A DNA stretch of 64,000 nt from Alphaproteobacteria bacterium. GTDB taxonomy: Bacteria > Pseudomonadota > Alphaproteobacteria > 16-39-46. The stretch spans positions 105,695 through 169,694 of the forward strand of contig JAGYKM010000001.1 in assembly GCA_018401675.1 (NCBI GenBank), written 5' to 3'. Under the pieces are notes generated by a model, which saw only the letters and a list, made by a program, of their open reading frames with translations, did not search any database and was not told the origin of the DNA. Made by a program: the position numbers and the translations under genes. Shown one piece after another: positions 2,586 to 64,000 of this stretch. Numbering within the stretch: position 1 is the stretch's first letter; each line of letters opens with the position of its first letter.

Positions 2586-4024
2586 CTATTTTTTTTTATT
2601 TTTTGGTTTTGCGGGACCAAATACCGGACTCCGGTAGTTCCATATTAAACCAAAGAAAAAGGCGCTCATAAGCGAAGAAACAGCAAAAACTATAAAAGCA
2701 GCATCCCATCCCCAATGATCCACAATGATGCCGATGCCCACACCAGCTACACCGGCCCCAATATAACCAAAGGTTCCTGTAAGTCCATTTGCGGCTCCAG
2801 CGGCTTTTTTAGAAGCAAAATCTGCTGCTGCAACGCCTTGAAGGATTTGGGGGCCACTAACAAAAAAGCCTATCATTATCATAACAAAGGAACTTTGGAA
2901 ATTTGAACCAGAGGGAATTTGCCATAGATAGATTAAGAAAAGCATCAAGATAACCATAAAGACCATGGCAATAGGTCCGCGACGTCCTTTGAACGCGCGA
3001 TCTGATAAAGACCCAGCTACAATGCCTCCAAAGATGGCGGCAACATCAAAGCCAACAGTTTGCCAGGACGCACCCACCAAGGTGCTTCCTTTATTTTCTA
3101 TAAGAAAAGTAGGGGCCCAAGTTAAAAGACCAAAACGTAAGACATAAAAAAACATATTGGCCCAGCACATGTACCATACCAGTTTGTTTTTTAGGACACG
3201 ATCGACAAGAATCTCTCTTAAAGAAAGGGTCTGATCGCTCTCTTCTTGGATTACTAAAGAGGCGGATTTCTTTTCTTTATGTTCTTCAATGGACGGAAGC
3301 CCCAGAGATTCAGGGGTATCGCGCAAGCGGTTGTACAAAGCCAAGGCCAAAAAGACCGTAATAATACCTGGCACCCAAAAGGCGCTACGCCAACCCCATT
3401 CTACAATGAGGTATCCGCCGCCTACGGTTACAAGGGCAGCACCTATTTGATGAGAGGAATTCCAAATGGCCCACTTTGTGGCAATCTCTTTGGGATGAAA
3501 CCAGTGGGTAAGCAGTCTTTGACACGGGGGAGCCCCCATAGACTGAAAACACGCATTCAAGGCCCAGAAGAGAAAAATAAATAAATATTAGATATAAACC
3601 CCGTGGCGAAACACACAAAGGCCGACAGACATAAGCCTAGGGACATGAAATAACGGGCATTAGATCGGTCGCTGAAGGTGCCGCTAATAGCTTTTCCAAG
3701 GCCATATATAAAGGCAAATGAACTTCCTATCATCCCTAACTGAGCTTTGGAATAGCCGAATTCCAAACTCATTTGAGGCAGGGCAATGGCTAAGTTCTGG
3801 CGCACCAGATAAAAGGCAGCGTATCCGAACATTAAAGAGTAAAGGATGCGAAAACGCCAATAGCGAAAGGATTTCGATACCGAAGGAGAAGATCCTTGAG
3901 ACTGGGTCACGGGGTTTACAGTAGATAACGGACGGTGACCTGACTCACCAGATGCTCTCATGCCTATTCCTTTCTTGTAAAGTTGAAGTACTGATAGAGG
4001 ATTCTTTGCCAAAAAGCAATTCAA
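2586..4024 (-). pseudogene. GlpT/UhpC-family organophosphate:phosphate antiporter (MFS), interrupted by a frameshift near nt 3557-3575
   Basis: Two adjacent ORFs (3557..4024 and 2586..3560) together align along the full GlpT/UhpC length ('FGYAAFYLVRQNLAIALP', 'SMGAPPCQRLLTHWF', 'DTPESLGLPSIEE'). The junction lies in a T-rich run (sense 'tatttatttattttt'). Confidence 0.7.
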
Positions 4025-8312: not shown

Positions 8313-9074
8313 ATGAGTGAAAAACCCCCAGAAACGGGAAACGAAGAAGCGCGCATGTTGAGTTTAGACCGAGTGGGAAAAACCTATGGAAAAAGGCCTG
8401 TTCTGAGGAATATTAGCCTCACTATCCGCCGGGGGGAAGCTGTAGGCTTATTGGGCCCCAATGGCGCAGGAAAAACTACCTGTTTTTATATCATCATGGG
8501 TCTTATTCGTCCTGACTACGGCCAAGTTTTGCTGGATGGAAATGACATCACCATGCTGCCAATGTATCAACGAGCCCGATTAGGGGTGGGTTATTTGCCC
8601 CAAGAAGTATCGATTTTTAGAGGGTTATCAGTTGAGCAGAATATACAAGCTGTACTCGAAATCTCTGGCTTGTCTCGAGACGAGCAAGAAGGTCTTTTAG
8701 ACCATCTTTTGGCTATCTTTTCTATCGGTCATTTGCGCCGTGCGTCAGCCATGTCGTTGTCGGGAGGAGAGCGACGGCGTGTAGAGATTGCTAGGAGCCT
8801 TGCAGCCCGTCCCCAGTTTATTTTACTGGATGAACCTTTGGCAGGTATAGATCCCATTGCCGTGGGCGAGATAAGGGACGTAATCAGTCAGCTGAAAGAA
8901 TTAGGGATAGGTGTATTAATTACCGATCATAATGTCAGAGATGCCTTGGGGATCGTTGATAGAGCTTACATCGTCCATGAGGGGGTAATTATGGCAGAAG
9001 GGCCCCCAGAAGAAGTGACAGTCCACGAAGAGGTGAGAAAGGTCTACTTGGGAGAAAACTTTCAGCTCTCCTAG
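8313..9074 (+). CDS. lptB: LPS export ABC transporter ATP-binding protein LptB
   Basis: Walker A 'GPNGAGKTT', signature 'LSGGERRRVEIARSLA', Walker B 'ILLDEP'. This is near-identical in pattern to LptB. Confidence 0.9.
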   Translation: MSEKPPETGNEEARMLSLDRVGKTYGKRPVLRNISLTIRRGEAVGLLGPNGAGKTTCFYIIMGLIRPDYGQVLLDGNDITMLPMYQRARLGVGYLPQEVSIFRGLSVEQNIQAVLEISGLSRDEQEGLLDHLLAIFSIGHLRRASAMSLSGGERRRVEIARSLAARPQFILLDEPLAGIDPIAVGEIRDVISQLKELGIGVLITDHNVRDALGIVDRAYIVHEGVIMAEGPPEEVTVHEEVRKVYLGENFQLS

Positions 9075-9512: not shown

Positions 9513-12236
<2,724 letters not shown>

Positions 12237-12342
12237 CTTTTTAGCGTACAGAAATAAATCTCTATACTCATTAATTAAGTACAGCCTCATAATCTTACAT
12301 ATTTCTCTTTCTTAGGCAAAGATACAGAATGCTTTAGAATGA

Positions 12343-12458
12343 CTTGGTGGTTTTAGCGAGGGTGTCACACACGATCCCATACCGAACTCGACAGTGAAAC
12401 CCCTCAGCGCCAATGGTACTATGTCTTAAGGCATGGGAGAGTAGGTCGCTGCCAGGTC
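12343..12458 (+). rRNA. rrf: 5S ribosomal RNA
   Basis: 'cttggtggttttagcgagggtgtcacacacgatcccataccgaactcg...gcatgggagagtaggtcgctgccaggtc' is a canonical 5S. It is flanked by a 12-bp perfect inverted repeat (aatgctttagaa / ttctaaagcatt) and then a T9 run. Confidence 0.95.
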
Positions 12459-24829: not shown

Positions 24830-27202
24830 ATGCAAGCTGTGAATAAAATAGTAAAGATGCTCTTAAGTGTATGCGTGGTTTTCCTAATGGCATCGACCAT
24901 GGTCATGGGGATGCATCAAAGAGGCGGCATGACATTGGATGACGACAGAAGGCCCAGTGAGCATCTGTGTCCTATTACCCTTAACGTGATGAGAGACCCG
25001 GTTGTTGCCGCGGATGGACACTCCTATGAAAGAACTTCTATTGTGGAACAATTTAAACGTAGGGTCCAGAGTCCCATGACAGGCTTGCCCATAACCAGGC
25101 ACCTTTTTGATAATAATGCCCTACGAACAATGATTAGAGAATGGCAAGCGGGTAGGCAAAGTGAGCCTTGTGAGCTAGACACACGAGAGGCAAGCAGCAT
25201 AGCTCAACGGGTCAAAGATGAGTTTGAAAGACATGCGTATCTTTTAACCTCAGAGAAAGGTGCTTTAGGGCAGCATATTGTTGCTTTTTTAGGCAATACG
25301 GGAGCAGGCAAGAGTACCTTAATCAATTTTCTGGCTGGAAAAGCACTTAAGGTAGGTGACTATGGGGAGGATTACGTCTTAAGAGATAGTGGGGACACAA
25401 CAGCCATGATCATTGGACAAGGAGGAAGATCAGAAACCCTTTATCCAAAGTCTATTGATGTGGGAGAACTGCGATTTTTTGATCTTCCGGGGTTTAATGA
25501 CACCGATGGATCAGAGCGGAACTTAGTCAATGCAGCCTTTATTAGGAAGATTCTTTTGGATGCAGAATCGGTACGTTTTGTTTTTGTTGCGGGACAAGAT
25601 CAGTTTACGTCGGATCGGAGTGCTTCTATAAGAAAGATGTTTCAGTCCATTAATCGTCTATTTGTGGGAGAAGAAGAGATCAATTTTACGGATAATGGAA
25701 TATTTGTTGCGACAAAAGTGACTTGTGCTGCGGATAGGGACATAATCCCCTTTTTGTTAAGAAAAACAGATTCTTCTGACAAAGAAGAGCTGCAAGAGCA
25801 GTTGGATGCTTGGTCGAATAACGACAAAATAGGTCGTATGTTTCATCCTTTGCTTGGCGCATCCAATGAAGCCATGGGCGATGAGATCCTAAGACGCATC
25901 CGAAACGTGAGACCAGTGAAGGTTCGAGGCGTTAATGTAAGTGCTCTGTATCCACCCGAAACAAAAACAGCTTTAGAAAGAATGTTTTCGAGTATGATGG
26001 AAGGCGCGTTAGAACAGAAGAGAGCAGCCCCTTTAGAAACACTCAGTCAGTACAACGAAGCCATAAGAGAATACAGAGACGAAAGATTTTGGGAACTGTT
26101 GGATGCTGATCTTTGCGTGAAGGAGCAGGCTATGAGATTGCTGAAAGAGTTTTGCATTACGCCTTACACTAAAGCCCTTAAAGATTTTGAAAAAAACGAG
26201 GCAATAAGGCATCAAGCGCACATTCAGAATCTGGAAGAGAAGAAGCAAGCTCGGGTGAGCGATATTGAGGATAGAACGGAAGAGAGAGCCAAGAGGGTTA
26301 TTGCTTCCATATTTCCAAGACCACAAGGAGAAGATGTTGTGCCTTTTGATTTTGCCTATCACAAAGACTACTACGAAGGGGTATGTGGATCAGTATCAAT
26401 CACCCAGCTGGCTACTGATGCCACGGAACAAGAGCTCGTGAGACAGCATTATGCCGGTGTCATCAGTCGTCATAGTCACGACCAGATGATGCGTTGGCAG
26501 GAAAGATTTAGTGGGGTTGCGGAGCTATTCAGGGAAGTTGCCCAAATGAAAAAGGAATTAGAAGCCTTGCGTGGAGAAAAGGCTGAAGGTGCCACGCTTG
26601 TGGCGCAACCTGAGAGGGTATCGATCCCAGAAGTTGCTTTGGGACACGAAGCGGTTTACGAAAGATTTTTAAAAGGAGTCTTGGTTTATCGCCCAAACCC
26701 AAACAGCGATGAGGGAAAAATAGAGCTCCCTATTGCCGCGTTAGAAAATCCCCTTGAGGGCACCTTTGATTTATCTAACTGTGGTGATGCGGGACAGTAC
26801 TTAAGTATAGCGACAGGGTATCGCAAGTATGTTAATGCTGAAAATGCCAAGAAGGTTGAAATCTGGATCGCACCGAGATTTTTGATAGAAAAGGACATAA
26901 GAGGACCGGCCCGACATCTAGCACCTATCATGGGGGCGTGGGATAAGACTACCGTCCCGGTTGGCCTTTTCTTCAATTGGGGAGGATGGAATGAAATGGA
27001 TTCTTTTGATTATGCCGTCACCCACACGCGCAAGAAGCTATGTAGCATGCATATGCACAGCGTGTATGCATCAGCTTCCGGCGCAGGATTAAACGGGCAT
27101 AAGCCACAAAACAGTTACATCTGTATGGCAAAAGAGTCGAGGTGCCCGGTATGCGTCGTGGCGGAGGTTGGTCATCCAGATCATTTCATGTTTCGTTTAT
27201 GA
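24830..27202 (+). CDS. Chimeric U-box (E3 ubiquitin-ligase fold) + P-loop GTPase (AIG1/GIMAP-/MMR_HSR1-like) protein with a coiled-coil and unknown C-terminal domain; candidate secreted effector
   Basis: U-box: 'CPITLNVMRDPVVAADGHSYERTSIVEQF...LPITRHLFDNNALRTMIREW' aligns motif-for-motif with eukaryotic U-boxes (CPISLELMRDPV..GQTYER.SI..W...P.T...L.PN..LR.LI..W). GTPase: G1 'GNTGAGKST', G3 'DLPGFND'. The N-terminus is hydrophobic. Confidence 0.8.
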   Translation: MQAVNKIVKMLLSVCVVFLMASTMVMGMHQRGGMTLDDDRRPSEHLCPITLNVMRDPVVAADGHSYERTSIVEQFKRRVQSPMTGLPITRHLFDNNALRTMIREWQAGRQSEPCELDTREASSIAQRVKDEFERHAYLLTSEKGALGQHIVAFLGNTGAGKSTLINFLAGKALKVGDYGEDYVLRDSGDTTAMIIGQGGRSETLYPKSIDVGELRFFDLPGFNDTDGSERNLVNAAFIRKILLDAESVRFVFVAGQDQFTSDRSASIRKMFQSINRLFVGEEEINFTDNGIFVATKVTCAADRDIIPFLLRKTDSSDKEELQEQLDAWSNNDKIGRMFHPLLGASNEAMGDEILRRIRNVRPVKVRGVNVSALYPPETKTALERMFSSMMEGALEQKRAAPLETLSQYNEAIREYRDERFWELLDADLCVKEQAMRLLKEFCITPYTKALKDFEKNEAIRHQAHIQNLEEKKQARVSDIEDRTEERAKRVIASIFPRPQGEDVVPFDFAYHKDYYEGVCGSVSITQLATDATEQELVRQHYAGVISRHSHDQMMRWQERFSGVAELFREVAQMKKELEALRGEKAEGATLVAQPERVSIPEVALGHEAVYERFLKGVLVYRPNPNSDEGKIELPIAALENPLEGTFDLSNCGDAGQYLSIATGYRKYVNAENAKKVEIWIAPRFLIEKDIRGPARHLAPIMGAWDKTTVPVGLFFNWGGWNEMDSFDYAVTHTRKKLCSMHMHSVYASASGAGLNGHKPQNSYICMAKESRCPVCVVAEVGHPDHFMFRL

Positions 27203-27215
27203 ACTAAAAAAATGA

Positions 27216-28152
27216 TTAAACAAGTGACCCAGCAGCCACGCATGGACCCAGACTCCAACATGAAAAGAGACTGGGCAGAGACGTTTGCACACAAGATGCA
27301 AACGTCTCGATCGATGATAATCCTAATTTCAGCCAGCGTGTCCATTGATCGATGTACCGACGCAACCGCTTTGTTTTATCAAGGTCAGAAGAAGCCTGTG
27401 CGCGCAACGATAGGAGAAGGTTTTTAAAATAGTCATCACAAGGAGGGGCTTCGTTCACTTGATATAAAGATATATCCCGTGTTTCTGCTTTTTTTTGATA
27501 GCGACGGGAATTGGTCTTCCTGGGCGGGCGCTCATAAAGCGCGCTGGCACGTTCGTGAAAACGCCTGATAGTTTCTTTGGCAAGGAGTATTTTTTTGTGC
27601 TCAAAGTAATAAGCTAAAAAGGTAAAGCCTTGGCTTATTTTTCCAATGTAAGTTTTTGAGGAGTGAAGGTGTAGTTTTAGTTCTGCAATAATCTTATGGG
27701 TACGTCTAACAACCTTACGCAAAGCGGTTTTACTTTTGGCAAAAACCACCCAATCATCCATAAAACGGGAATAAAAAACCATCTTGAATTGTCCCCATGG
27801 CTTGATCAAGAGGCATTAAGTCGATAGCACCAAGCAAGGGAGATCAAGGACTCCCCATAGGAATGCCTTTTTCAAGATAGTCATAGAAAATGCCGCCATA
27901 GGTTTTCGTACGATGGCATGCTTTGCTAATAAGGCTTAAAAGAGCAGGATTCTTAATGTAAGATTCAAGAATGCCCATTAAAACGTCAAAGTTAATGGAG
28001 TCATAGTACCCTTTAATATCACTCCGCATCACGTAATGATAATTAGGTAAAGCCCTATGAGTATCGTGATTACACATTATGGCCTTTGATATGATAACAG
28101 GATTATGGAATATGGTGGCCCATTTGAGATTCAATGGCTTGGGTGATGAGCT
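27216..28152 (-). pseudogene. Degenerate reverse transcriptase (group II intron / retron-like RT), 5'-truncated and frameshifted; retroelement remnant
   Basis: Two out-of-frame ORFs carry RT motif 3 'SDIKGYYDSINFDVLM', motif 4 'GIPMGSP', motif 5 'RFMDDWVVF' (YADD-type) and motif 6/7 'LHLHSSKTYI...GFTFLAY'. The N-terminal motifs 0-2 are absent or degenerate, and no intron domain V was found. Confidence 0.6.
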
Positions 28153-28765
28153 TTAAGGTAATCATATCTTATGAAGCCCAAAGAGAGATAATAGCGTCTT
28201 CTAACACGTAGAGATTAAGAGCGCTAAATTGATACGTTCCCTCATTGAGTTAGCTGAGCATGATGGGTTTGATTTCATTCCAGCCGTGGCGAAGATGCCA
28301 AATATCCGAATTGGGGCCGTGTTTTTTACGAAGAGATACAATCCACAGGTAAGCACGATCCATAGCATCTAGGGTATGTAATAAGGGTTATTTGACAAGG
28401 TGTTATTAATCTCCCTATAAGAGCAGTTAATGGGCATATTAGACAAAGTAATCTCGGTCCGAGGAAATAATCTATGTCAGAATGCATTTGTTTGAAGGCA
28501 AAAGTGAATATATGGATGAAAAAAGAGCAGAACATCCAAGAGGTTGTCTTGCGATCCCAATAAGGTTTAAACTTTGTCGGGTGGTAAGGTGGCTTATAGG
28601 AGAAAGCCCCAAGGGGCTTGGTTTGTTAAGTGTCAGGCTAAAGAACCAAGGCCAAAAAGGCTTTTTTGAGACTAGAAAGTCTGATAATGTTAAAAAGAAT
28701 AAGAATTCCTTGAAAACTCAGGGGGGGTAAGAACCATAATAAACAGTGAGAACGGGAGACTGAAA

Positions 28766-29506
28766 ATGAGAATTTTGTCTTTAAATAAAAGCGTATCGAT
28801 GAGCATCCTAGGGGCCTTAATTCTGGGGGGTGCCTTGACAACACCACTTTTTGCAAAAGAGTATACTCTAAAAAACTCCCAAGTGGTGAGCCAAGGCCCG
28901 GTCTCTAAGTATTTTCCTCATTTTACGGCAAACACGGCAGCCTCCACGCCTTTGAAACAAGTCGAGGAGTGGGCAAGCGCTTACGAAGCTTTTTACCGGA
29001 AAAATAAAGGAAAAGTAGCGCCAGGGGGGCACTGTGTATCTCTTGGTACCTACGATAATAAGACTGGTGATGTATTTCAAAGTACTGTGTATATCAAGGA
29101 GATTACAAAAGAGGGGGTTGTTTTCGAGTCTCGTCCTAACACTCAAAAGGTACGCAATGCAACGGCTCATCCCAAAGCCAGTATGCTTTTTCTAGTAGCC
29201 TATCCTGATCGGGCAGAGCAAGTTGAATTCAGAGGTGTGGTGGAGCCCGTAGAAGATACTAACACAGATGCTCGATCTGATAGAAAAAATATGTGGAAGC
29301 GTTATATTCTTAAGCCAAGAATGGCAACTGTGGCATTGGTTAAATTCTATGATCTAGGGACTGAGGGCAGCATTCTTCCTATTGTGGACAGGGTGTCTTT
29401 TGCCTTGGGAAAAGATGGAAAGTGGGCTAAGAAAAGTCAACCTCCGTATTATGGTGGAAATGATCTTTTGGAAAAGATAGAAAAAGAGCACGATCCTAGA
29501 GGCTAG
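28766..29506 (+). CDS. Secreted PNPOx-like (pyridoxamine-5'-phosphate-oxidase/general-stress-protein-26-like) FMN-binding split-barrel protein
   Basis: Signal peptide 'MRILSLNKSVSMSILGALILGGALTTPLFA'. The core 'ATAHPKASMLFLVAYPDRAEQVEFRGVVEPVED...KNMWKRY' resembles the PNPOx-like fold. Confidence 0.4.
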   Translation: MRILSLNKSVSMSILGALILGGALTTPLFAKEYTLKNSQVVSQGPVSKYFPHFTANTAASTPLKQVEEWASAYEAFYRKNKGKVAPGGHCVSLGTYDNKTGDVFQSTVYIKEITKEGVVFESRPNTQKVRNATAHPKASMLFLVAYPDRAEQVEFRGVVEPVEDTNTDARSDRKNMWKRYILKPRMATVALVKFYDLGTEGSILPIVDRVSFALGKDGKWAKKSQPPYYGGNDLLEKIEKEHDPRG

Positions 29507-32017: not shown

Positions 32018-33609
32018 ATGCAGGGAGTTGCCAAGAAAATAACCCACGAGGGGGGGCGATGGGGAGATAAAATTTGGTTTTTCTCCGGTGCTTCTTGCCC
32101 TTGTTATTATAGGAATATTGGGAAAAACGGCCTCTGAAAAGAACCCGAGAAATGTTCTTGCCGGCATAGTTTTGCAGATGTTGCTCAACAAATACTTCCC
32201 ACTGTGGTTGATGTTTCAGGAACGAGCGCCCCAAGTGAATCGGGGTCGGATGGTGGCTCTTTGGGAGGCGCGCCTCATGGGGATCCCCGGCTTGCTCCAA
32301 GTGGCGGGCATCGCCGCTCCTTGGGAGGCTTTGTAGTAGACCCTTCAGGATATATTTTGACCAACGGACATGTCATTTACGAAATAGAGGCAGTGACCGT
32401 ATCCTTATCTGATGGATCGGTATACCCAGCGGAAGTTATTGGAAAAGATGAACGCACTGACCTGGCTCTTTTGAAATAAAAACGCCTATGAAATTGCCTT
32501 CATTGTCCTGGGGCGACTCCCACCAAGCGCGTGTAGGAGACTGGGTATTAGTGGCAGGAAGTCCTTTTGGATTTGGACGGTCGATTTCTGCAGGTATTAT
32601 TTCAGCTCGAGCTCGTGATATTTCTAAGATGTCGGGAGAGGGAGGACCAGAGGGTTTATTTGTGGGTTATGTGGATGATTTGATTCAAACGGATGCGGCT
32701 ATTAATCTGGGCAACTCAGGAGGGCCCATGGTGGATGTCCAAGGAAATGTGATCGGCGTTAATGTGGCTATTTATTCACCATCGGGGGGAAGTGTAGGTA
32801 TTGGTTTTGCGGTTCCGGCTTGTGTAGCTCAACGGGTGTATGAAGCTTTACGCGCAAAGGGCCATGTGTCTTATGGGTGGATAGGCGTGAGAGTGCAAGA
32901 GGTGGACGATTTTATAGCGACTTCATTGAGGTCACAAGAATACTATAAAAAGGGCGTCAAAGGCGCTTTGGTGAGTGGTATAGACCCGGAAGGATCAGCA
33001 GCAAAAGCTGGTCTGGAGCTTTCGGATATTATTCTTTCATTTGGGGGGCACCCCATAGAATCCTACGATCGTCTCACGCGCATTGTGGGTGAAACGAGTC
33101 CTGGAAAATCCGTTTCAGTTCGTTTTTTACGTGATGGAAAGGTTCTTGATAGAAAAGTAAGGGTGGAGGCATGGTCTTTAGATAAAGGTACTCAAAAAAA
33201 CCTTCCATCTCATGTAGAGCCCTCTTTTCTTCCCTATTCTGCCGATATGCCTGGTTTATTTAGAATGGATCTTTTAGGGATATCTTTGCTCCCATTAACT
33301 GCTTCAATGAGTGGAGCTTTGTACCTACTTGAGGGGACAAAAGGACTGTACGTGGTCCAAAGCAATGGAACAGGTGAGACAGTCTCTATGACGATGGGGG
33401 GTATAAGGGCTGGAGATGTAATTGTGGAGGTTAATAATGAACCAGTGGGGTCTCCTCAGCGCCTGAATGATCTTTTGGCTGCGTGGCAGAAGGAAAATAA
33501 GAGGACGCTTTTGCTAAAAATTTGGCGGCAAGGTCAAGTTCATTACATCGGGGTAGCTTTGCCTTCAGAAAAAAAAGATCATGAAATGAGTTCTAATCTT
33601 TCTTCCTAA
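32018..33609 (+). pseudogene. htrA: Periplasmic serine endoprotease HtrA/DegP (trypsin + 2 PDZ), interrupted by 2-3 single-nucleotide frameshifts (genuine pseudogene or homopolymer sequencing errors)
   Basis: The pieces are in three frames: a signal region 'LLALVIIGILG', 'SFADVAQQILPTVVDVSGT...YILTNGHVI...DERTDLALLK' (catalytic His), then 'GDSHQARVGDWVLVAGSPFGFGRSISAGIISA' (catalytic Ser) plus PDZ domains. The breaks are at the G7 run 32050-56, at ~32135-32170, and at the A-run 32477-32482. Confidence 0.75.
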
Positions 33610-50704: not shown

Positions 50705-51764
50705 ATGGTAGCAAAGGTAGTGCTTGCATTAGATGGCATGGGAGGAGAGTCTGCGCCAGATGTGGTCGTCCAGGGAGCTGCTTTAGCCTGGAAAAAAGCG
50801 CCTTATCTGAGTTTCAAAGTTTTTGGGGATAGTCAGCGATTGCTGCCATTGGTCAAAAAATATGGAAATAGTGACGTTTTCACAGTGGTTCATACAGATG
50901 GGGTCATTGATGATCATATGAAACCATCTCAAGCCATTCGATCAGCACGAGGCTCGAGTATGGCTCAAGCCATCCAATCAGTAGCTGATCAAGAGACCAT
51001 GGGTGTGGTTTCTGGGGGCAATACGGGAGCCTACATGGCTCTTTCCAAAATTCTTCTTAAAACCATTCCAGGTGTTTCTCGGCCTGCTATTGCCTCTTAC
51101 CTTCCCAACCGCAAAGGAGGCGAGACGGTCTTTCTTGATTTGGGCGCTAATGTGCTGTGTGACGAAGAAAATTTGTCTCAGTTTGCGGTTATGGGAAGTA
51201 TTTTTGCCCAACATGTTTTAGGGATTCATAATCCCCGTATTGGACTTTTAAATATTGGAGAAGAGGAGCTCAAGGGCAATCAAACCCTCAGGAGGGTTTA
51301 CGGTTTACTCAAGGGGCTTCCGTCACTCAATTTTCACGGATACGTAGAAGGGGATGACATCACTGCTGGCATAGTGGATGTGGTGGTGACAGATGGATTT
51401 ACGGGCAATATAGCTCTCAAGACTATTGAAGGCACAGCGCGACTTTTGAAATATTTTCTCAAGCAAGGATTCTGCGGCTCTTTGATGGGACGTTTGGGGC
51501 CTTATGTGTGCATCCTCTGCTCTACGGCAGGTTCAAGAACGAATGGATCCGAGCCGATATAATGGGGCTGCTTTTTTGGGTTTAAATGGGTTGGCCATAA
51601 AAAGTCATGGCTCTACCGATGCGCTTGGGTTTTCTAATGCAGTTGGGGTCGCTCTTGATATGCTTCGCCATGGTTTCAAGGCTCATATTGAGAGAGATAT
51701 AGAAAATTTAAGGGCCTATGAAGCGGCTATCATGTTGGATTCTAATAAAGATAGGTCACCATGA
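50705..51764 (+). CDS. plsX: Phosphate acyltransferase PlsX, C-terminal ~75 aa in a different frame (frameshift near 51500-51512)
   Basis: 50705..51562 encodes the PlsX core 'LALDGMGGESAPDVVVQGAALA...'. The ORF 51504..51764 encodes the C-terminus 'RMDPSRYNGAAFLGLNGLAIKSHGSTDALGFSNAV'. The junction lies in 'ccttatgtgtgcatcc'. Confidence 0.8.
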
Positions 51765-52738
51765 GTCAGAAATATTCTGCCATCATTGGATGTGGAGGAT
51801 GTGTTCCTGAACGGAAGGTATCCAATAAAGATCTTGAGGCTCAGGTGAATACCACTGATGAGTGGATTCGAGAGCGAACCGGTATTGAGACTCGGTACAT
51901 TTCCTCCAAGGAAGAAACGTCCTCTTTTTTAGGGGCTCAAGCCGCTGTAGCGGCTTTGAAGCAAGCGAATATAAATGCTTCGCAGATCGATTTTTTGGTA
52001 TGTGCCACCTCAACACCTGATCTTACTTTTCCCGCCACGGCTACCTTAATTCAAAAAGCCATCGGTATGAAACAAGGGTTTGCCTTTGATCTTCAAGCCG
52101 TTTGTAGTGGCTTTGTATACGGATTGAGCGTGGTGGATGCTATGATGAAGGCAGGCCATGGGCGCCGGGCACTCCTTATCGGGGTAGATGTTTTTTCAAA
52201 AATTGTGGATTGGCAGGATCGAAATACCTGCGTTTTGTTTGGAGATGGGGCGGGGGCCGTTGTTTTAGAGCAAATAGAGACTCAAGATTCTGAAAAACCT
52301 CGGGGTATTTTAGACTCTGCTTTATATTCTGATGGGGCATTTGTCGATTTATTGAGAACCTCAGGCGGCGTGGGAACCACTCAAGAGGGTGGTGTGATTC
52401 TCATGAAAGGTCCAGAAGTATATCGACACGCGGTAGAAAAGATGACCCAATCAGTCCAAGATTTGCTTGATAAAAATAAGCTGTCCATTGACGATGTTAG
52501 GTGGTTAATTCCTCATCAGGCCAATAAACGTATTATGATGGCGGTAGCGACTCGTCTTGGCTTGCCCGAAGAAAGGGTTATTGTCACCGTTGGGATGCAT
52601 GCAAACACCTCTGCGGCAACCATTCCTTTGGCACTGAACGAGGCAGTGAAAAAAGATCTCATTAAGCCCGGAGATTTAGTGGTATTCGAGGCTCTTGGGG
52701 GGGGATTTACCTGGGGTTCTGTCCTGGTTCGCTGGTAA
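51761..52738 (+). CDS. fabH: 3-oxoacyl-ACP synthase III (FabH)
   Basis: Active-site Cys context 'AFDLQAVCSGFVYGL', with 'HQANKRI' and 'GMHANTSAATIPLAL'. It follows rpmF-plsX. Confidence 0.9.
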   Translation: MSQKYSAIIGCGGCVPERKVSNKDLEAQVNTTDEWIRERTGIETRYISSKEETSSFLGAQAAVAALKQANINASQIDFLVCATSTPDLTFPATATLIQKAIGMKQGFAFDLQAVCSGFVYGLSVVDAMMKAGHGRRALLIGVDVFSKIVDWQDRNTCVLFGDGAGAVVLEQIETQDSEKPRGILDSALYSDGAFVDLLRTSGGVGTTQEGGVILMKGPEVYRHAVEKMTQSVQDLLDKNKLSIDDVRWLIPHQANKRIMMAVATRLGLPEERVIVTVGMHANTSAATIPLALNEAVKKDLIKPGDLVVFEALGGGFTWGSVLVRW

Positions 52739-57918: not shown

Positions 57919-58353
57919 TCAGATAGCGGGATGATGGGGTGTAAAAACTGTGGGCCAGCAGGTTTCGGTATCTGTGAGATAAAGGGGAGTCTGGCAGGTG
58001 ATAAGGCGCAAGGCCTTATCACCTGCGAAGGTAAATACTAGGGTGTCACGTTCTTGTGATAAAGTGAGCAACACCAGCTGCTCTTCTGGATTACTAGCGT
58101 CGATGGAGTATCTTTGGAGATGAGAAATTTTTGGAATATGGAGGTGGCTTATAATGCGGAGATTATTGTCTGGGGTGCTTGAAGAAGAGGCGCGATGGTA
58201 TCGATATAAAACCATGGTAAAAGTTTCTGAGATTAAATCATGAACAAGCCCCACAGATGGAACCAAAGCATCTTGAAGCAAAGCAGACATAATTTCTATA
58301 TCTTCAAGAGTCTCTGCCTTGATTTTTAGTAAAGAGGGGGTGCTTTTTTTCAT
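57919..58353 (-). CDS. Hypothetical protein (144 aa)
   Basis: ORF with good coding periodicity; no recognisable motif. Confidence 0.3.
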   Translation of the reverse strand: MKKSTPSLLKIKAETLEDIEIMSALLQDALVPSVGLVHDLISETFTMVLYRYHRASSSSTPDNNLRIISHLHIPKISHLQRYSIDASNPEEQLVLLTLSQERDTLVFTFAGDKALRLITCQTPLYLTDTETCWPTVFTPHHPAI

Positions 58354-58643
58354 GGCAATCTTTCATTAAGAGAAATTAGCGAGATATGGTTGAGTACTAA
58401 GTTCTGCTGTCCAGTTCACAACTATTTCAAAGAATAATACCTCTGGAAGGGGAAGGTAAGGTGAGTGAATGCCTCTTTTGAACGAGAGGAAAAATGGAGT
58501 GCAAAAGACAGCTCCTGCATTTTTCTTATGGAATTAAAATACCATAGATTTAAGGGTAATGGTGAATTTTTAGAGTGATTGGGATTATCTAGGGGACCGG
58601 TGAATGGAAGGACCTCATCCTGGATAGGCCTCGGTCTTTTTTT

Positions 58644-59342
58644 TTATTTTCTTTTGGGATTAAGGTCATTGGTGTCGGGGGTATGGTCTATGAGTAAGGG
58701 AACCGGCGTACTTTCTACGCCGTGGTTTTTTTGTATGATGGTGTGGAAGAGTTGATTATGAAAAATTTGTTGGTTTAAAATATAGGACTGATGATTTACT
58801 GATACTTCAAAGGGTTCTTGGGTGGTAAACCGATCTAGGTAGATGTCCCAATGGGTCTTTAGAGCTTGAGGAAGGCCCAGTCCGCGGGATTTAGCTAAGG
58901 CTTCCTTGGCGGTCCAAAGAGCATAAAAACCAAGAGGACCTTTTTTTTCTACGTACTGAGCTTCTTTTTTGGAAAAACCCCAGTGAGCGATTTTTTCGTA
59001 AGGCCTCGTGAGGCTCATGTCTTCAATATCTATGGCACAGGGGAAAGAATAGGAAGACAACAACACGCTCACCCAAGATTGGGAGTGGCTCACACTGATA
59101 TCTGGGAGGCTGGGGGTTTCGGATGAGGGGGCCCATAAATAGGGTTGTCCAGAATTTGCATGTTTAATGACCACTTCTTGTGCTTGGCTTTTTGAAAGCA
59201 AAGGAAAGTGGGTGAGGAGACCTTGGGTGAGGACATGAGCGCGCTGGCGGAGAAGAAATCGGGAGGGACGAAAGGATTTTATAGTGGCACTGCAGTTTGT
59301 TGGTTGCGCAAGGCGACCTAAGGCCACCACAATATTTGACAT
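58644..59342 (-). CDS. 4'-phosphopantetheinyl transferase (Sfp/EntD-type)
   Basis: 'FPCAIDIE' (Mg-binding) and 'WTAKEALAKSRGLGL' (W/KEA motif) are characteristic of Sfp-type PPTases. Confidence 0.65.
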   Translation of the reverse strand: MSNIVVALGRLAQPTNCSATIKSFRPSRFLLRQRAHVLTQGLLTHFPLLSKSQAQEVVIKHANSGQPYLWAPSSETPSLPDISVSHSQSWVSVLLSSYSFPCAIDIEDMSLTRPYEKIAHWGFSKKEAQYVEKKGPLGFYALWTAKEALAKSRGLGLPQALKTHWDIYLDRFTTQEPFEVSVNHQSYILNQQIFHNQLFHTIIQKNHGVESTPVPLLIDHTPDTNDLNPKRK

Positions 59343-59479
59343 GAATAGACTTCCAAGAGTAGAGTGAGACCGGAAACGAAGGGGTGGTATTTCTGCCCGT
59401 AGGTGGTCAGAAAACTTGGGCAGTGGTTCTATTTCTAAGAGTGCAGATAACCATACCTTGGCAAAAAAGGAAACGAAAA

Positions 59480-59650
59480 ATGAACCTTAGACAAACAGTC
59501 AAAAGAATAGGACTGAGTTCAGTCATAATGGTCAGTCTCGGAGGTTGTGGGCATAAAACAGTGCCTATTAGGGCCTTTGATCAAGGATCGCCTTACACAG
59601 CTTCTGTGTTGTCTTTGCAAGAATTTGGAAACCGTATCCAATTCGCTTAA
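59480..59650 (+). CDS. Putative small lipoprotein (56 aa)
   Basis: 'MNLRQTVKRIGLSSVIMVSLGGC' is a lipobox-type signal (L-G-G-C). Confidence 0.3.
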   Translation: MNLRQTVKRIGLSSVIMVSLGGCGHKTVPIRAFDQGSPYTASVLSLQEFGNRIQFA

Positions 59651-59868
59651 TAATTGTACCAAAAGTATGACAACATATATGAGTCATAATTTTTAACGTT
59701 GTTGTGCACAAAAGGGCAGTCAGGTAAGGACTGGGAATAGGTATCGAGACGGCCGTTTGGCCCATAGGGACTAAAGAAGGGACTTTTTGTCCGCCCCAAG
59801 AAGAAATTAGGTTGCCAAGAGGTGGCCAAGGGCGTCGATTGTCAGCTTTGGGAAAACTGAATTCTTAA

Positions 59869-60195
59869 GGCCATGGAACAGCCACTGAATATGGTGATAT
59901 TGCTGAAAGCCAAGCTACCTATAAGGTCTTTGGACAGAAAGTTCCTTTTCATTCACTGAAAAGCTACTTTGGGCATACCTTAGGCGCTTGTGGCGCTCTA
60001 GAAGCTTGGCTGGGGATTGAGATGCTCCATGACCACTGGTGGGCGCCTACTCTTAACTTAGAGACCGTAGATCCTCGCTGTTCTGAGTTGGACTATGTGA
60101 CCAAAACTGGTAGGACTTTAGTCCTCGATACATTTATGACGAATAATTTTGCTTTCGGGGGCATAAACACCAGTTTGATATTCTCAAAAAGGTGA
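59869..60195 (+). pseudogene. 3'-terminal fragment (~108 aa) of a beta-ketoacyl-ACP synthase (FabF/KAS II-like); N-terminal ~300 aa absent
   Basis: Translation 'HGTATEYGDIAESQATYKVFGQ...SLKSYFGHTLGACGALEAWLGIEMLHDHWWAPTLNLETVDPRC..DYV...NNFAFGGINTSLIF' matches the KS C-terminal His-Gly-Thr / Lys / His motifs. An in-frame stop lies immediately upstream. Confidence 0.7.
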
Positions 60196-60280
60196 GTGGA
60201 ATCTAGGTGCGATATGCCAATTTTCATAGCTTGAAAATCCACTATATCTTTTCGGCTTCAAAAACCCGTCACGGGATCCC

Positions 60281-61366
60281 TTAAAGAAGGTTCTTCGGGA
60301 GCATTTTGTAAATAAGAGGGTTTTTAGCATAAAGTTCTTGAAACTCTTTTTTGTAGATAGGCTCGCTCAAGGTTATATCCATCTTGGATACAACCTGTGG
60401 CGTCGTGGCCCATAAGAAAGAGCCTAACCCACCCAAGAGGGGGAGCACATTATCAAGGTTTTCCGCTGCCGGTCCGACGACCTCAAACTCTATGGCATAT
60501 CCTTCACCTTCAAAAATAGAACGGATAATAGCCTGTTGGTAATCCACATGAGGTTGATTAGAGACAAAGACAATGCGACGTATATCTGGATGTTGTTTTA
60601 ACCAAGAGATCAGGTCTAACATCGTGGTTTGAGTGGTGGGTCGAGGAAGATCTCCGGCAGGTGTATCGATAAGGATGAAGGGGAGATTTCTTTGTGATAA
60701 GGGGGAGTCATAGTACAAAGCTTCACCTAATTGGGCCTCAGTCAACAAACGCCAATCATTTTTTCCCATAGCTTGCGCCAAATCATGGAGCGTTTCTTTT
60801 GATCCATCTACGTCAAGGGTGACATACCGCTCTCCTGACAAGAGGATAATGGTACTAGGCGTAAGGCCTTGATCAATTAGAGCATCAACGTAGGCTATCC
60901 GTTCAGCCATCCGATTCCTAGTAGCGCCCAGAATGCAAATAGCATCAGGGTTCTTTATCGTAGGATCTCTAGCGGCCACAAATCCTAAAATAGTGAGATC
61001 TTTTAATACGCTTGAAGTGTTTTTCTCCATCCAAGCTAAAGGTTTTACTTCCCACCGTTCTTGGGTTCCCGTCCGCACCGTAAATTTAGCCTGGGTTTCT
61101 TTTACTAAAGTTAGAAGGTTTTGGATAAGGTGAGATTGTTTTTTTCCACAAGAAAAAGTATCTCTCCACTGAGACTGGTCTATATGAATGTTGGCTTTTT
61201 GGAGAAGGTTATCCAAGGTTTCTTTTTGTTCAGTTGAAGCGAATCCATAACAGGTAAGGGCATCATTCCAGGTATATTTGTTATAATAATGATAAGAGAT
61301 ACCCACGGCTAAAATGCTGGCGATAAGAAATAACCCTAAAAAGAATCTAGTAGAATATTTGCGCAT
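60281..61366 (-). CDS. Membrane-anchored hypothetical protein, possibly DUF218/YdcF(ElyC)-like
   Basis: N-terminal TM 'FFLGLFLIASILAVGI'. 'AICILGA' and 'RIVFVSNQPHVDYQ' resemble DUF218 motifs (VVLGG...LVTSxxHMxRA). Weak. Confidence 0.3.
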   Translation of the reverse strand: MRKYSTRFFLGLFLIASILAVGISYHYYNKYTWNDALTCYGFASTEQKETLDNLLQKANIHIDQSQWRDTFSCGKKQSHLIQNLLTLVKETQAKFTVRTGTQERWEVKPLAWMEKNTSSVLKDLTILGFVAARDPTIKNPDAICILGATRNRMAERIAYVDALIDQGLTPSTIILLSGERYVTLDVDGSKETLHDLAQAMGKNDWRLLTEAQLGEALYYDSPLSQRNLPFILIDTPAGDLPRPTTQTTMLDLISWLKQHPDIRRIVFVSNQPHVDYQQAIIRSIFEGEGYAIEFEVVGPAAENLDNVLPLLGGLGSFLWATTPQVVSKMDITLSEPIYKKEFQELYAKNPLIYKMLPKNLL

Positions 61367-62461: not shown

Positions 62462-63689
62462 TTAAGAGATATTTGCTGTAGAATTTTTCCCGTTGATAAT
62501 CCGCTCTAAAACCATGAGGGGCGTTAGAGGAGAAGGTTCAGCCAACCCTTGATGATAGAGGACTGTGGAGGGTGTAAGGGCTGGGAGTGAATTGGCCTCA
62601 ATGACGATAATCTGGTCAGTGGATGGATTCACAAAACAATCTATGCGGGCATAGTTTATTCCCAAGGCACGGCTATTTTGATAGCGGCTTGTTTGATTTT
62701 GACAAGCGACTCTGGTGAGATCAGGGTGGAGGTGGCGGGGTAATATTCGTACCCGTACCTCCTTGAAACTTTTCTTCTACATTGAGAACCTGATTTGATG
62801 AAACCGTCAGGCTAGGATTAAGGGCGTGGTAGGCTCCATGGGATTCAAATACGGCAATAGTGATCTCCATCCATCCTGAGCGGGGCGTATGGACCAGGGT
62901 GCATCCAGATACTGTGAGTCCATCGGTTTGTAAGAATGGTTCTAGCACATAGGCACTCTGGGAAGCTGTGGAGCTTAATTCTATAATACTTTCTTGGCCC
63001 TTAAAGCTATGGATAGGAATACAAGAAGCCCCTTTGTGAACCAGGTTCATATAAGTTGTAAGATCTTCACTAGACTCTAGAGGAACGATGCCGGAAGAGC
63101 ATCCATCATGTTGGGGCTTAATAATGTAAGGAGGGAGACCTAAGTGATTTTGCAGAGCTGCCCAGTAGGAAGCGATTTTTTCTGGCGTAGGGTTTTTAAA
63201 GGTGGAAGCATGAAGCACATATTTGGGGAGAGCGATGAGGGCAGGATCTGCTATGTGGTTAATGACGTTACCAGTTTCTAGCTTATCCATGCATAAGTGT
63301 GAGGCTTTTTCTCCTGACCCGTTATAAGGAAGACCCGCTAGATCCAACATTTTTTGCCAAGTTCCATTCTCTCCAGAACCGCCATGAAGCGCGATGAAGA
63401 CGAAAGCATGGGCCTTTAGGGCTTTATCCATAAATTCTTCCACGGATATCTTTTCTAAAGAAGCCAAGACAGGGGTTGGATCAAGGCCTAAACGGGTCCT
63501 AATGGTATCCACATAAATATGAGCATCATGAGAATGCCCCAGGCATTTTTTATAGATTTCCTCTACCGTGTGATGAAGACAATAGGCATAGGGAATTTGC
63601 CATAAAAACCCATCGGGATCTAAGAAAAAAGGAGTAGGTTCGTAGCGAGAGGAACGCATGAGTTTTAGCCATACATTGGTTCCGCTCAT
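62462..63689 (-). pseudogene. Ddl-like ATP-grasp ligase (D-Ala-D-Ala ligase family paralog), split by a frameshift near 62700-62725
   Basis: N/central 'VFIALHGGSGENGTWQKMLDLAGLPYNGSG' and 'YIIKPQHDGCSSGIVPLES' match Ddl motifs. The C-terminal ORF 'GINYARIDCFVNPSTDQIIVIEANSLPALTPSTVLY' is in another frame; the alternative-frame read-through 'PDLTRVACQNQTSRYQNSRALGINYARIDCF' restores continuity. Confidence 0.6.
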
Positions 63690-63761
63690 TACAGAAACTT
63701 GTCGTTCAGCGGTATTCCCTCCAAAAACTACCCAGACCGCATCATGTTTGGATGTGGTGGG

Positions 63762-64000
63762 CTATGGGGCGCTATTTAAAGGCAAGCCATATCTGGAACA
63801 GGCATTTGTCATAATGTAGCCCAGAATCTCTTCGTGCTTCATGCCTACATGAGCGGCTTGAAGGAACAAAAAGCTGTTTTGTTCCATGCCGCTAATGGGG
63901 TTAAAATCTGTAAAAAGAATGCGCCCATCCTCCAAGACCCATCCATCGATGCGGACAAAATCTCGCAAGTCAAAAAGGGAAAAGAGGTCTTCGGCTTTTT
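63762..64000 (-). CDS. C-terminal part of a second Ddl-like ATP-grasp ligase (gene continues beyond window end)
   Basis: 'RDFVRIDGWVLEDGRILFTDFNPISGMEQNSFLFLQAAHVGMKHEEIL' matches the Ddl C-terminal 'RVDFFL..DG.IYLNEINTIPG'. The ORF is open at the window edge. Confidence 0.55.
   Translation of the reverse strand, partial: KAEDLFSLFDLRDFVRIDGWVLEDGRILFTDFNPISGMEQNSFLFLQAAHVGMKHEEILGYIMTNACSRYGLPLNSAP

Follow-up and report, generated by a model that had tools for sequence, protein, structure and literature searches.

A probable deletion scar of an aryl-polyene-type gene cluster beside an intact Sfp-type phosphopantetheinyl transferase in an alphaproteobacterium of order 16-39-46

Introduction

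Positions 58644–60195 of a 64-kb stretch of alphaproteobacterial DNA (64,000 nucleotides of contig JAGYKM010000001.1, called the window here) carry the 3′ end of a ketosynthase (KS) gene and, pointing away from it, an intact gene for an Sfp-type 4′-phosphopantetheinyl transferase (PPTase). The region is very probably the scar left by the deletion of an aryl-polyene (APE) type II polyketide synthase (PKS) cluster, with no working function of its own and with the PPTase left intact beside it. APE gene clusters, with apeA–apeR of Escherichia coli CFT073 and of Xenorhabdus doucetiae, are reportedly the subject of work by Cimermancic (2014) and Grammbitter (2019).

The E. coli cluster used for comparison lies between yhhT and acpT. 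Its first half encodes a hypothetical lipoprotein, a methyltransferase, a chain-length factor (CLF), an acyltransferase, two carrier proteins, a COG4648 protein, an AMP-binding protein and the ApeI dehydratase. The second half encodes a glycosyltransferase, a thioesterase, a LolA-like protein, an MMPL protein, a DUF3261 protein, a KS, a hotdog protein, FabG2 and a 'beta-ketoacyl-ACP synthase', after which acpT follows. This is the APE cluster apeA–apeR, and its first gene encodes the lipoprotein ApeA (PMC8253772); APE clusters apeA–apeR are also treated in Johnston 2021 (PMC8253772). According to De Lay and Cronan 2006, to the extent that PMC8253772 reports it, AcpT activates the two carrier proteins of the APE cluster in E. 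coli O157:H7, and in K-12 it has become an orphan. The same paper (Mol Microbiol 61:232), again as relayed by PMC8253772, has O-island 138, the APE-like cluster beside acpT, lost from K-12. In a collection of E. coli we found acpT in 5426 of 5426 complete genomes and an ApeR-type KS in 841, so a PPTase that outlives its cluster is common in E. coli. In 16 of these 841 genomes, the match spans under 80% of the KS, and these partial matches may be comparable remnants.

The window comes from the metagenome-assembled genome M30B67 (JAGYKM000000000), obtained from Lake Shunet at 3.0 m depth and placed by GTDB in the alphaproteobacterial order 16-39-46; the genome measures 1.29 Mb, with 43.1% GC and a coding density of 81.8% (PMC8382752 and supplements). 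It is a Nanopore/Illumina hybrid assembly polished with Pilon (PMC8382752). A search of the literature on order 16-39-46 and on APE clusters in endosymbionts found nothing relevant.

The locus resembles that of E. coli K-12 in that an Sfp-type PPTase of an APE-type cluster would have stayed intact after the adjacent cluster was lost. In E. coli, acpT sits downstream of apeR, whereas the PPTase of the window stands divergent at the apeA side. Unlike the E. coli locus with its APE cluster, the window holds no cluster; it keeps stubs of the first and last cluster genes and probably one of the second, and the host is an uncultivated small-genome alphaproteobacterium rather than E. coli. The features are as follows.

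58644–59342, minus strand: Sfp-type (group II) 4′-phosphopantetheinyl transferase, 232 aa, intact (Pfam PF01648, catalytic motifs)
59343–59479, no strand: divergent intergenic region between the PPTase gene and apeA′, which would be the upstream region of the former cluster (blastn to contig L005)
59480–59650, plus strand: apeA′, the initial 56 codons of the gene that opens the cluster, with a lipoprotein signal peptide and lipobox LGGC; ends in TAA TAA
59737–59865, plus strand: probable apeC′ (CLF), about 40 codons of the 5′ end, followed by TAA at 59866–59868
59869–60195, plus strand: apeR′, last 108 codons and stop of what would be the terminal KS of the cluster (NF006587, match to E. coli ApeR)
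60281–61366, minus strand: conserved hypothetical protein, 361 aa, convergent right-hand boundary outside the cluster; no Pfam or NCBIfam match

The ketosynthase fragment

Positions 59869–60192 (+) encode 108 in-frame residues of a KS C-terminus (GHGTATEYGD...NNFAFGGINTSLIFSKR; full translation GHGTATEYGDIAESQATYKVFGQKVPFHSLKSYFGHTLGACGALEAWLGIEMLHDHWWAPTLNLETVDPRCSELDYVTKTGRTLVLDTFMTNNFAFGGINTSLIFSKR). The fragment is bounded by an in-frame TAA at 59866–59868 directly on its 5′ side and by TGA at 60193–60195 on its 3′ side. There is no start codon where it begins, the preceding codon being the stop. An earlier interpretation made from the letters alone (the sequence-only reading) had described a C-terminus of about 108 residues straight after a stop codon, and the coordinates agree. 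It had also assigned the piece to KAS II/FabF, with a disrupted fabF as its alternative, and on this point the profile searches disagree with it. Pfam Ketoacyl-synt_C recognizes the fragment with 49.5 bits (E 5e-13; cutoff 20.8; profile positions 51–119 of 119). NCBIfam NF006587 (PRK09116), by which E. coli ApeR is named, reaches 165.8 bits (E 1.3e-48; profile 301–406 of 408). This is about 70 bits ahead of the FabF models PRK07314 (96.2 bits, E 2e-27) and TIGR03150 (94.9 bits, E 4e-27; cutoff 493.75), and the FabB model gives 79.8 bits. E. coli ApeR itself ranks the KS models in the same order. A PDB search with the fragment returned 4ewg and 7f27 as top chains at 139–144 bits, and FabF/FabB structures at 80 bits or less.

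The fragment is 58% identical to residues 302–407 of E. coli ApeR (E 4e-39) and only 35% identical to ApeO, the other KS of the E. coli cluster; its top 120 database homologues are 63–73% identical, and the best ones, at 64–72%, come from APE-type surroundings. Two of the homologues (P0003 and P0013) were checked on long contigs. Each is the last KS in a run of LolA_3, MMPL, DUF3261, KS, ApeP-like dehydratase, reductase and KS genes, and both are short only through frameshifts in noisy assemblies, since tblastn restores full-length genes. The fragment and FabF/KAS II belong to one superfamily, the thiolase-fold KSs, and share the C-terminal His-His motifs as well as an NxxFGFGGxN-like end. It differs from FabF in the model scores, in its non-fab context and in comprising only the last quarter of a KS. 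On these comparisons, we assign the piece to the 3′ quarter of an ApeR-type KS gene, that is, a gene fragment and neither a member protein of that family nor fabF.

Both active-site histidines are kept (GHGTAT and GHTLGA), and the N-terminal domain with the active-site cysteine is missing. A full-length ApeR has about 408 residues, a Cys-His-His triad and a model cutoff of 470 bits, so that apeR′, at 165.8 bits and without the Cys region, is not one. Because the N-terminal half and the catalytic Cys are lost, KS activity is impossible for apeR′. When E. coli ApeR and ApeO and the ApeR proteins of three other loci served as tblastn queries, no KS N-terminal sequence came up upstream (all frames, 59300–60300) or elsewhere in the 64-kb window, just as the sequence-only reading had supposed for the upstream side; this also covers the search that it had proposed, with KS N-termini in all frames over 59343–59870. 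A weak ApeR match at 51531–51731 (E 0.012) was dismissed, as it falls in the C-terminus of a frameshifted plsX. A full KS needs about 900 bp 5′ of the fragment, and only 526 bp are available before the PPTase gene; the 5′ part is therefore physically absent and not just frameshifted.

At 45 positions with a conservation of 95% or more, apeR′ has no difference (mean of the other homologues, 0.5), and at the 90% level 2 of 53 differ (mean 1.2), in a homologue set that was picked by similarity to the query. The 108 codons contain no frameshift. The GC content of apeR′ is 0.454 and that of its third codon positions (GC3) is 0.435, compared with a mean GC3 of 0.399 and a maximum of 0.454 for 24 long open reading frames (ORFs) of the genome. 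The GC-rich top homologues have a GC3 of 0.85–0.92. The composition thus fits the genome and not these top matches, which marks the fragment as resident DNA and not a recent import. A 57-aa ORF (60022–60195) lies within the fragment.

Remnants of the first cluster genes

The sequence-only reading called the KS piece an orphan fragment. This is correct for the KS gene, which lacks its 5′ part; the 526-bp gap, however, is not empty and holds apeA′ and a probable apeC′. The translation of apeA′ begins MNLRQTVKRIGLSSVIMVSLGGCGHKTVP. Residues 1–57 of the ApeA-like protein encoded on L005, a contig of a relative (see below), align by tblastn to 59477–59647 with 40% identity (E 3e-10), lipobox included. 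With a three-sequence ApeA profile (E. coli, L005 and a second relative, L007), apeA′ was the sole significant match in six frames of the whole window (E 4e-4; profile 2–57 of 139). A 12-residue ApeA-like match at 60376–60423 (−) falls within the 361-aa gene and was discounted as a chance match. In blastn, window positions 59448–59483 match L005 1099–1064 with 80.6% identity (E 2e-4), and the match ends at the apeA start. A scan for promoters and terminators gave one promoter-like match at 59336–59365 (+), with the match count in the region at chance level.

The CLF of L005 aligns by tblastn to 59737–59856 with 40% identity over 40 residues, RRLSALGK standing against RRRLSPLGK (E 0.003 in a 1-kb search space). 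In a search with a CLF profile built from nine loci, the same segment ranks first among 2571 six-frame segments (profile 27–68). Its strand, its place in the gene order and these positions in the profile are those expected. A collinear blastn seed also pairs 59833–59857 with L005 546–522 at 80%. Together, the DNA matches to L005 run collinear with the window and comprise the PPTase core (69%), the apeA start (81%), and weak seeds in apeA (59621–59640) and in the RRLS region of the CLF. About 170 bp of L005 between the apeA seed and the RRLS seed are absent from the window. Judging from these alignments, 59737–59865 is a probable remnant of apeC. A weak extension of the ApeR match by about 20 codons in the 5′ direction, through the stop, is better explained as apeC. 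The junction of the large deletion falls at about 59857–59868; its exact place is uncertain by about 60 bp because the same 20 or so codons align to apeC or, poorly, to ApeR residues 280–300. A scan for repeats at the junction remained at chance level.

The remnants apeA′, apeC′ and apeR′ lie on one strand, in cluster order. They correspond to ApeA (lipoprotein), ApeC (CLF) and ApeR (initiating KS) of the E. coli APE cluster, with the same order and strand as there. When all 19 E. coli cluster proteins were searched against the whole window by tblastn, only the 3′ match of ApeR (with a weaker echo of ApeO at the same place) and a weak match of AcpT to the PPTase were obtained. No acyl carrier protein (ACP), adenylating enzyme, dehydratase, reductase, acyl- or glycosyltransferase or export gene of the cluster was found in the window by this search. 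The core APE gene set, comprising the KS/CLF pair ApeO/ApeC, ApeR, two ACPs, ApeH, ApeI/ApeP, ApeQ and ApeL/M/N, is not there. The locus is a remnant, not a cluster, and no product can come from it. The eroded secondary-metabolite or specialized-lipid locus that the sequence-only reading suspected is thereby supported and can be specified as an APE-type cluster, from the NF006587 match, apeA′, the probable apeC′ and the arrangement in L005 and L007.

The phosphopantetheinyl transferase

The PPTase matches Pfam ACPS (PF01648) with 40.4 bits (cutoff 25), and its 232 residues fit the Sfp type (220–240 aa) and not AcpS (about 120 aa). The motifs ISVSHS, DIED (D105, E107) and WTAKEALAK are kept, most of their positions being invariant in an alignment with P0122, P0123 and E. 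coli AcpT. The top PDB match is Sfp (1qr0/4mrt, E 7.5e-4). From the start codon of the PPTase gene to the KS fragment there are 526 bp, and the two features point apart; an Sfp-type PPTase at about 500 bp had been noted before and is confirmed. With the equivalog models for AcpT, AusB and HetI, the protein stays below cutoff. It differs clearly from AcpT, with approximately 23–30% identity to the E. coli protein and 23 bits (E 4.8e-5) with the AcpT equivalog NF007676, whose cutoff is 174. The PPTase is thus AcpT-like by genomic context and not an AcpT orthologue by sequence. A word-based search of 5.8e9 proteins yielded three matches only: the PPTase itself, P0122 (50%) and P0123 (33%).

From its motifs, the protein is predicted to be an Sfp-type enzyme, now without neighboring carrier-protein genes and an orphan in the sense of E. 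coli K-12 AcpT. PcpS of Pseudomonas aeruginosa activates the fatty-acid AcpP. The PPTase described here could persist as the sole phosphopantetheinyl transferase of the 1.29-Mb genome, having taken over AcpP activation in the manner of PcpS, although we regard this as rather unlikely. If true, a 'secondary-metabolism' enzyme would have turned essential while its own cluster was discarded and, taken more broadly, the loss of the APE pigment cluster would mark the shift of the lineage to host-dependent life. Alternatively, the PPTase may still serve another carrier protein, or its decay may not yet have begun.

Relatives and the arrangement of PPTase and cluster

The two closest relatives of the PPTase with genomic context are on L005 (which carries P0122, 50% identity) and L007 (36%); the contig of P0123 is too short to inform. 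L005 has genes for ComEC (42%), DUF2948 (51%) and the PPTase (50%) in the order and orientation of the window, which makes it a true relative. On the other side of its PPTase gene, in divergent orientation, are a 130-aa ApeA homologue (E 2e-12 against E. coli ApeA) and then an ApeC-like CLF (E 3e-14). L007 gives the top PPTase match (36%, E 1e-27) in genome_contigs, a collection with one genome per GTDB species to which the source genome and its close relatives do not belong. Its PPTase gene is divergent from apeA, C, D, E, F, G, H, I, J, K, L and M, an order collinear with E. coli save for the missing apeB methyltransferase. Unlike in E. coli, the versions of the cluster in both L005 and L007 have no apeB between apeA and apeC. 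The synteny comparison with relatives, which the sequence-only reading had suggested, thus places the PPTase divergent from apeA–apeC in both. The L005 contig stops inside apeC and the fetched L007 stretch inside apeM, so the right-hand end of the ancestral cluster is deduced from collinearity and not seen. For the position of apeR′ as terminal gene, apeA′ and the probable apeC′ lie 5′ on the same strand and the clusters of L005 and L007 start at the same place, their 3′ ends being beyond the sequence.

Among 80 PPTase loci found in genome_contigs, at least eight have three or more APE genes within 10 kb. In L028, a CLF is divergent from the PPTase; in L044, L049, L053, L072 and L084, the PPTase is just 5′ of the CLF; and in L066, it lies approximately 1.1 kb 3′ of apeR, as in E. 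coli. This PPTase group is repeatedly linked to APE-type clusters, at either end. A scan of JGI metagenome contigs with the PPTase gave distant PPTases only (at most 36% identity over more than 60 residues). A separate observation concerns gltX, which lies approximately 3.2 kb from the PPTase of the window and approximately 2.1–4.1 kb 3′ of the PPTase in seven Geobacteraceae/Desulfuromonadales loci (L015, L022, L026, L032, L042, L094 and L097). This proximity is probably a coincidence.

Deletion history and alternative explanations

We propose that the ancestor would have carried an APE-type type II polyketide/lipid cluster transcribed away from a divergent, dedicated Sfp-type PPTase, with the PPTase gene on one side and apeA, apeC, apeD, two ACP genes and further genes up to apeO, apeP, apeQ and apeR on the other. 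The DNA between roughly apeC codon 47 and apeR codon 300 would have gone in one large deletion of approximately 13–15 kb; its size would be approximately 13.0 kb in the coordinates of the E. coli cluster and approximately 14–15 kb when extrapolated from L007. A second, smaller loss of approximately 170 bp would have taken the 3′ two-thirds of apeA and the start of apeC. The cognate carrier proteins (ApeE/ApeF type) would have been lost from the locus. Since apeR′ shows no erosion, a recent deletion is suggested. The reduced size of the host genome, its coding density of 81.8% and the several other broken genes in the window speak for this history as well. Several points weigh against this account. 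The match of apeC′ is weak alone (profile E just 0.25), and about 20 of its codons also align, poorly, to ApeR residues 280–300. The zero erosion of apeR′ can also be explained by some constraint on its sequence. Elsewhere in the genome, of which the data cover 64 kb, there may be further carrier proteins or another APE cluster that is intact. Finally, no relative was found with a whole cluster between the PPTase and the 361-aa gene.

Other explanations need to be weighed against a cluster deletion. The fragment might be a housekeeping fabF (KAS II) disrupted by mutation or sequencing error. It does match the FabF models, and indel errors are possible in a Nanopore/Illumina hybrid assembly (PMC8382752). 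The ApeR-type model is nevertheless ahead by some 70 bits, with the same gap among PDB matches, and the 526 bp upstream not only fall short of the 900 bp needed but match apeA and probably apeC. There are also no acpP, fabD or fabG neighbors, the plsX and fabH of the window being 7 kb off. In addition, a contig assembled independently from SRR14300309 of the same project (Logan contig L001) is 100% identical over 58249–60419, a stretch that includes the PPTase gene, the three stubs and the two junction stops. An intact full-length fabF appearing after error correction, the outcome that the sequence-only reading had named as its own refutation, thus has too little room and is contradicted by a second assembly, and we consider a broken fabF hardly tenable. 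The same contig bears on a chimeric join of a foreign KS 3′ end to the PPTase, an artefact of assembly or binning. The source is a metagenome-assembled genome from merged long- and short-read assemblies, and the top protein matches of the fragment come from GC-rich organisms, both of which would suit such an artefact. The identity of L001, the native composition of the fragment (GC3 unlike that of those homologues) and the flanks, of which the left is syntenic with L005 and the right carries a gene family of the same alphaproteobacterial group, make a chimeric join unlikely, and apeA′ and apeC′ stand in the expected order. The probability of an artefact is accordingly very low.

A somewhat better case, though still an improbable one, can be made for a separate arrival of the KS fragment, for example as a horizontally transferred scrap, in which case its adjacency to the PPTase would be coincidental. 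The KS and the PPTase are divergent and not co-directional like apeR–acpT of E. coli, and no relative with a complete cluster at the site was seen. The divergent layout of the PPTase and apeA–apeC, however, matches L005 and L007 exactly, the strand and order of all three stubs fit one collinear cluster, and the composition is native. The lack of erosion, with 0 of 45 highly conserved positions changed and no frameshift in 108 codons, would also be explained if the KS C-terminal piece or the 57-aa ORF had been retained for a function, as a small protein or a regulatory element. We give little credence to this idea: the catalytic Cys and the entire N-terminal thiolase half are gone, and the fragment starts straight after a stop without a start codon. 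P0003 and P0013, the short KS_C-only homologues checked on long contigs, are full-length genes with frameshifts and do not form a short-protein family, and a recent deletion is the simpler account of the conservation. Deletion of an APE-type cluster therefore remains the explanation that we prefer by far.

Consequences for annotation and genome history

Loss of a cluster whose PPTase stays behind as an orphan is already known from E. coli K-12; the event is ordinary genome decay of that type in a new lineage. Knowledge of the KS and PPTase families is unchanged by it. The KS fragment should be annotated as a pseudogene remnant of an ApeR-type synthase and not as fabF, and the PPTase as an orphan cluster-associated Sfp-type enzyme. 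If the proposed history is correct, the locus offers a clean, datable case in which a shrinking alphaproteobacterial genome (order 16-39-46) lost an entire biosynthetic cluster by excision, with both cluster ends still recognizable. APE-type clusters with a divergent, dedicated PPTase would then have existed in this poorly known lineage. Because the AcpT story of E. coli recurs in a distant lineage, it is suggested that such PPTases tend to outlive their clusters.

Flanks and other features of the window

The 361-aa protein on the right flank has 85 homologues, and the few with a named source come from Alphaproteobacteria, Rickettsiaceae and one Myxococcota; the gene family is specific to this alphaproteobacterial group. 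Homologues on six contigs have unrelated neighborhoods without APE genes, so that right-flank synteny was not found on these contigs.

The gene decay in the window, together with its unlinked rRNA pair, alphaproteobacterial markers and U-box/GTPase protein (all described below), gives the picture of a host-associated, shrinking genome, in which the APE scar is one more loss. The plsX gene (50705–51757, +) is apparently frameshifted: its 285-aa ORF matches Pfam FA_synthesis positions 1–262 of 324, and the conserved C-terminus (...GAAFLGLNGLAIKSHGSTDALGF...) runs on in the next frame, with no homopolymer at the shift. Either a remaining long-read error or a genuine pseudogene, here of an important lipid gene, could account for the shift. 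The fabH gene (51761–52738) directly 3′ of it is intact. Look-ups of the exact products of gltX and of the shortened plsX of the window returned no record. Two tandem genes similar to D-Ala-D-Ala ligase (ATP-grasp, ddl-like) occupy 62462–64000 (−). The downstream one (approximately 62462–63760) has two frameshifts, near 62730 and 62665, and of the upstream one the 3′ end is present (63762–64000). A gene for an MFS transporter (2586–4024, −) is split into two overlapping ORFs, 3557–4024 with MFS_1 positions 1–89 and 2586–3560 with positions 96–346, which suggests a frameshift pseudogene.

At 27216–27809 (−), a 197-aa ORF contains only the end of a reverse-transcriptase domain (RVT_1 140–203 of 205), followed by approximately 950 bp without long ORFs; the region 27216–28766 resembles a group II intron or retroelement in decay. 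The ORF of a DegP/HtrA-like protease (32488–33609, +) starts at Trypsin_2 position 65 with approximately 540 bp free of long ORFs on its 5′ side (from 31944), and its N-terminus may have been frameshifted or lost. The gene at 24830–27202 (+) encodes a 790-aa protein with a eukaryote-type U-box (E3 ubiquitin-ligase) and a dynamin/GTPase-like domain, an architecture that would fit an effector of a host-associated bacterium. The 23S and 5S rRNA genes (9516–12457, +) have no 16S rRNA, tRNA-Ile or tRNA-Ala gene upstream, where an ABC-transporter ATPase gene ends at 9074. Such an unlinked rRNA arrangement is known in Rickettsiales-like alphaproteobacteria. The window also contains the alphaproteobacterial markers TrcR and DUF2948.

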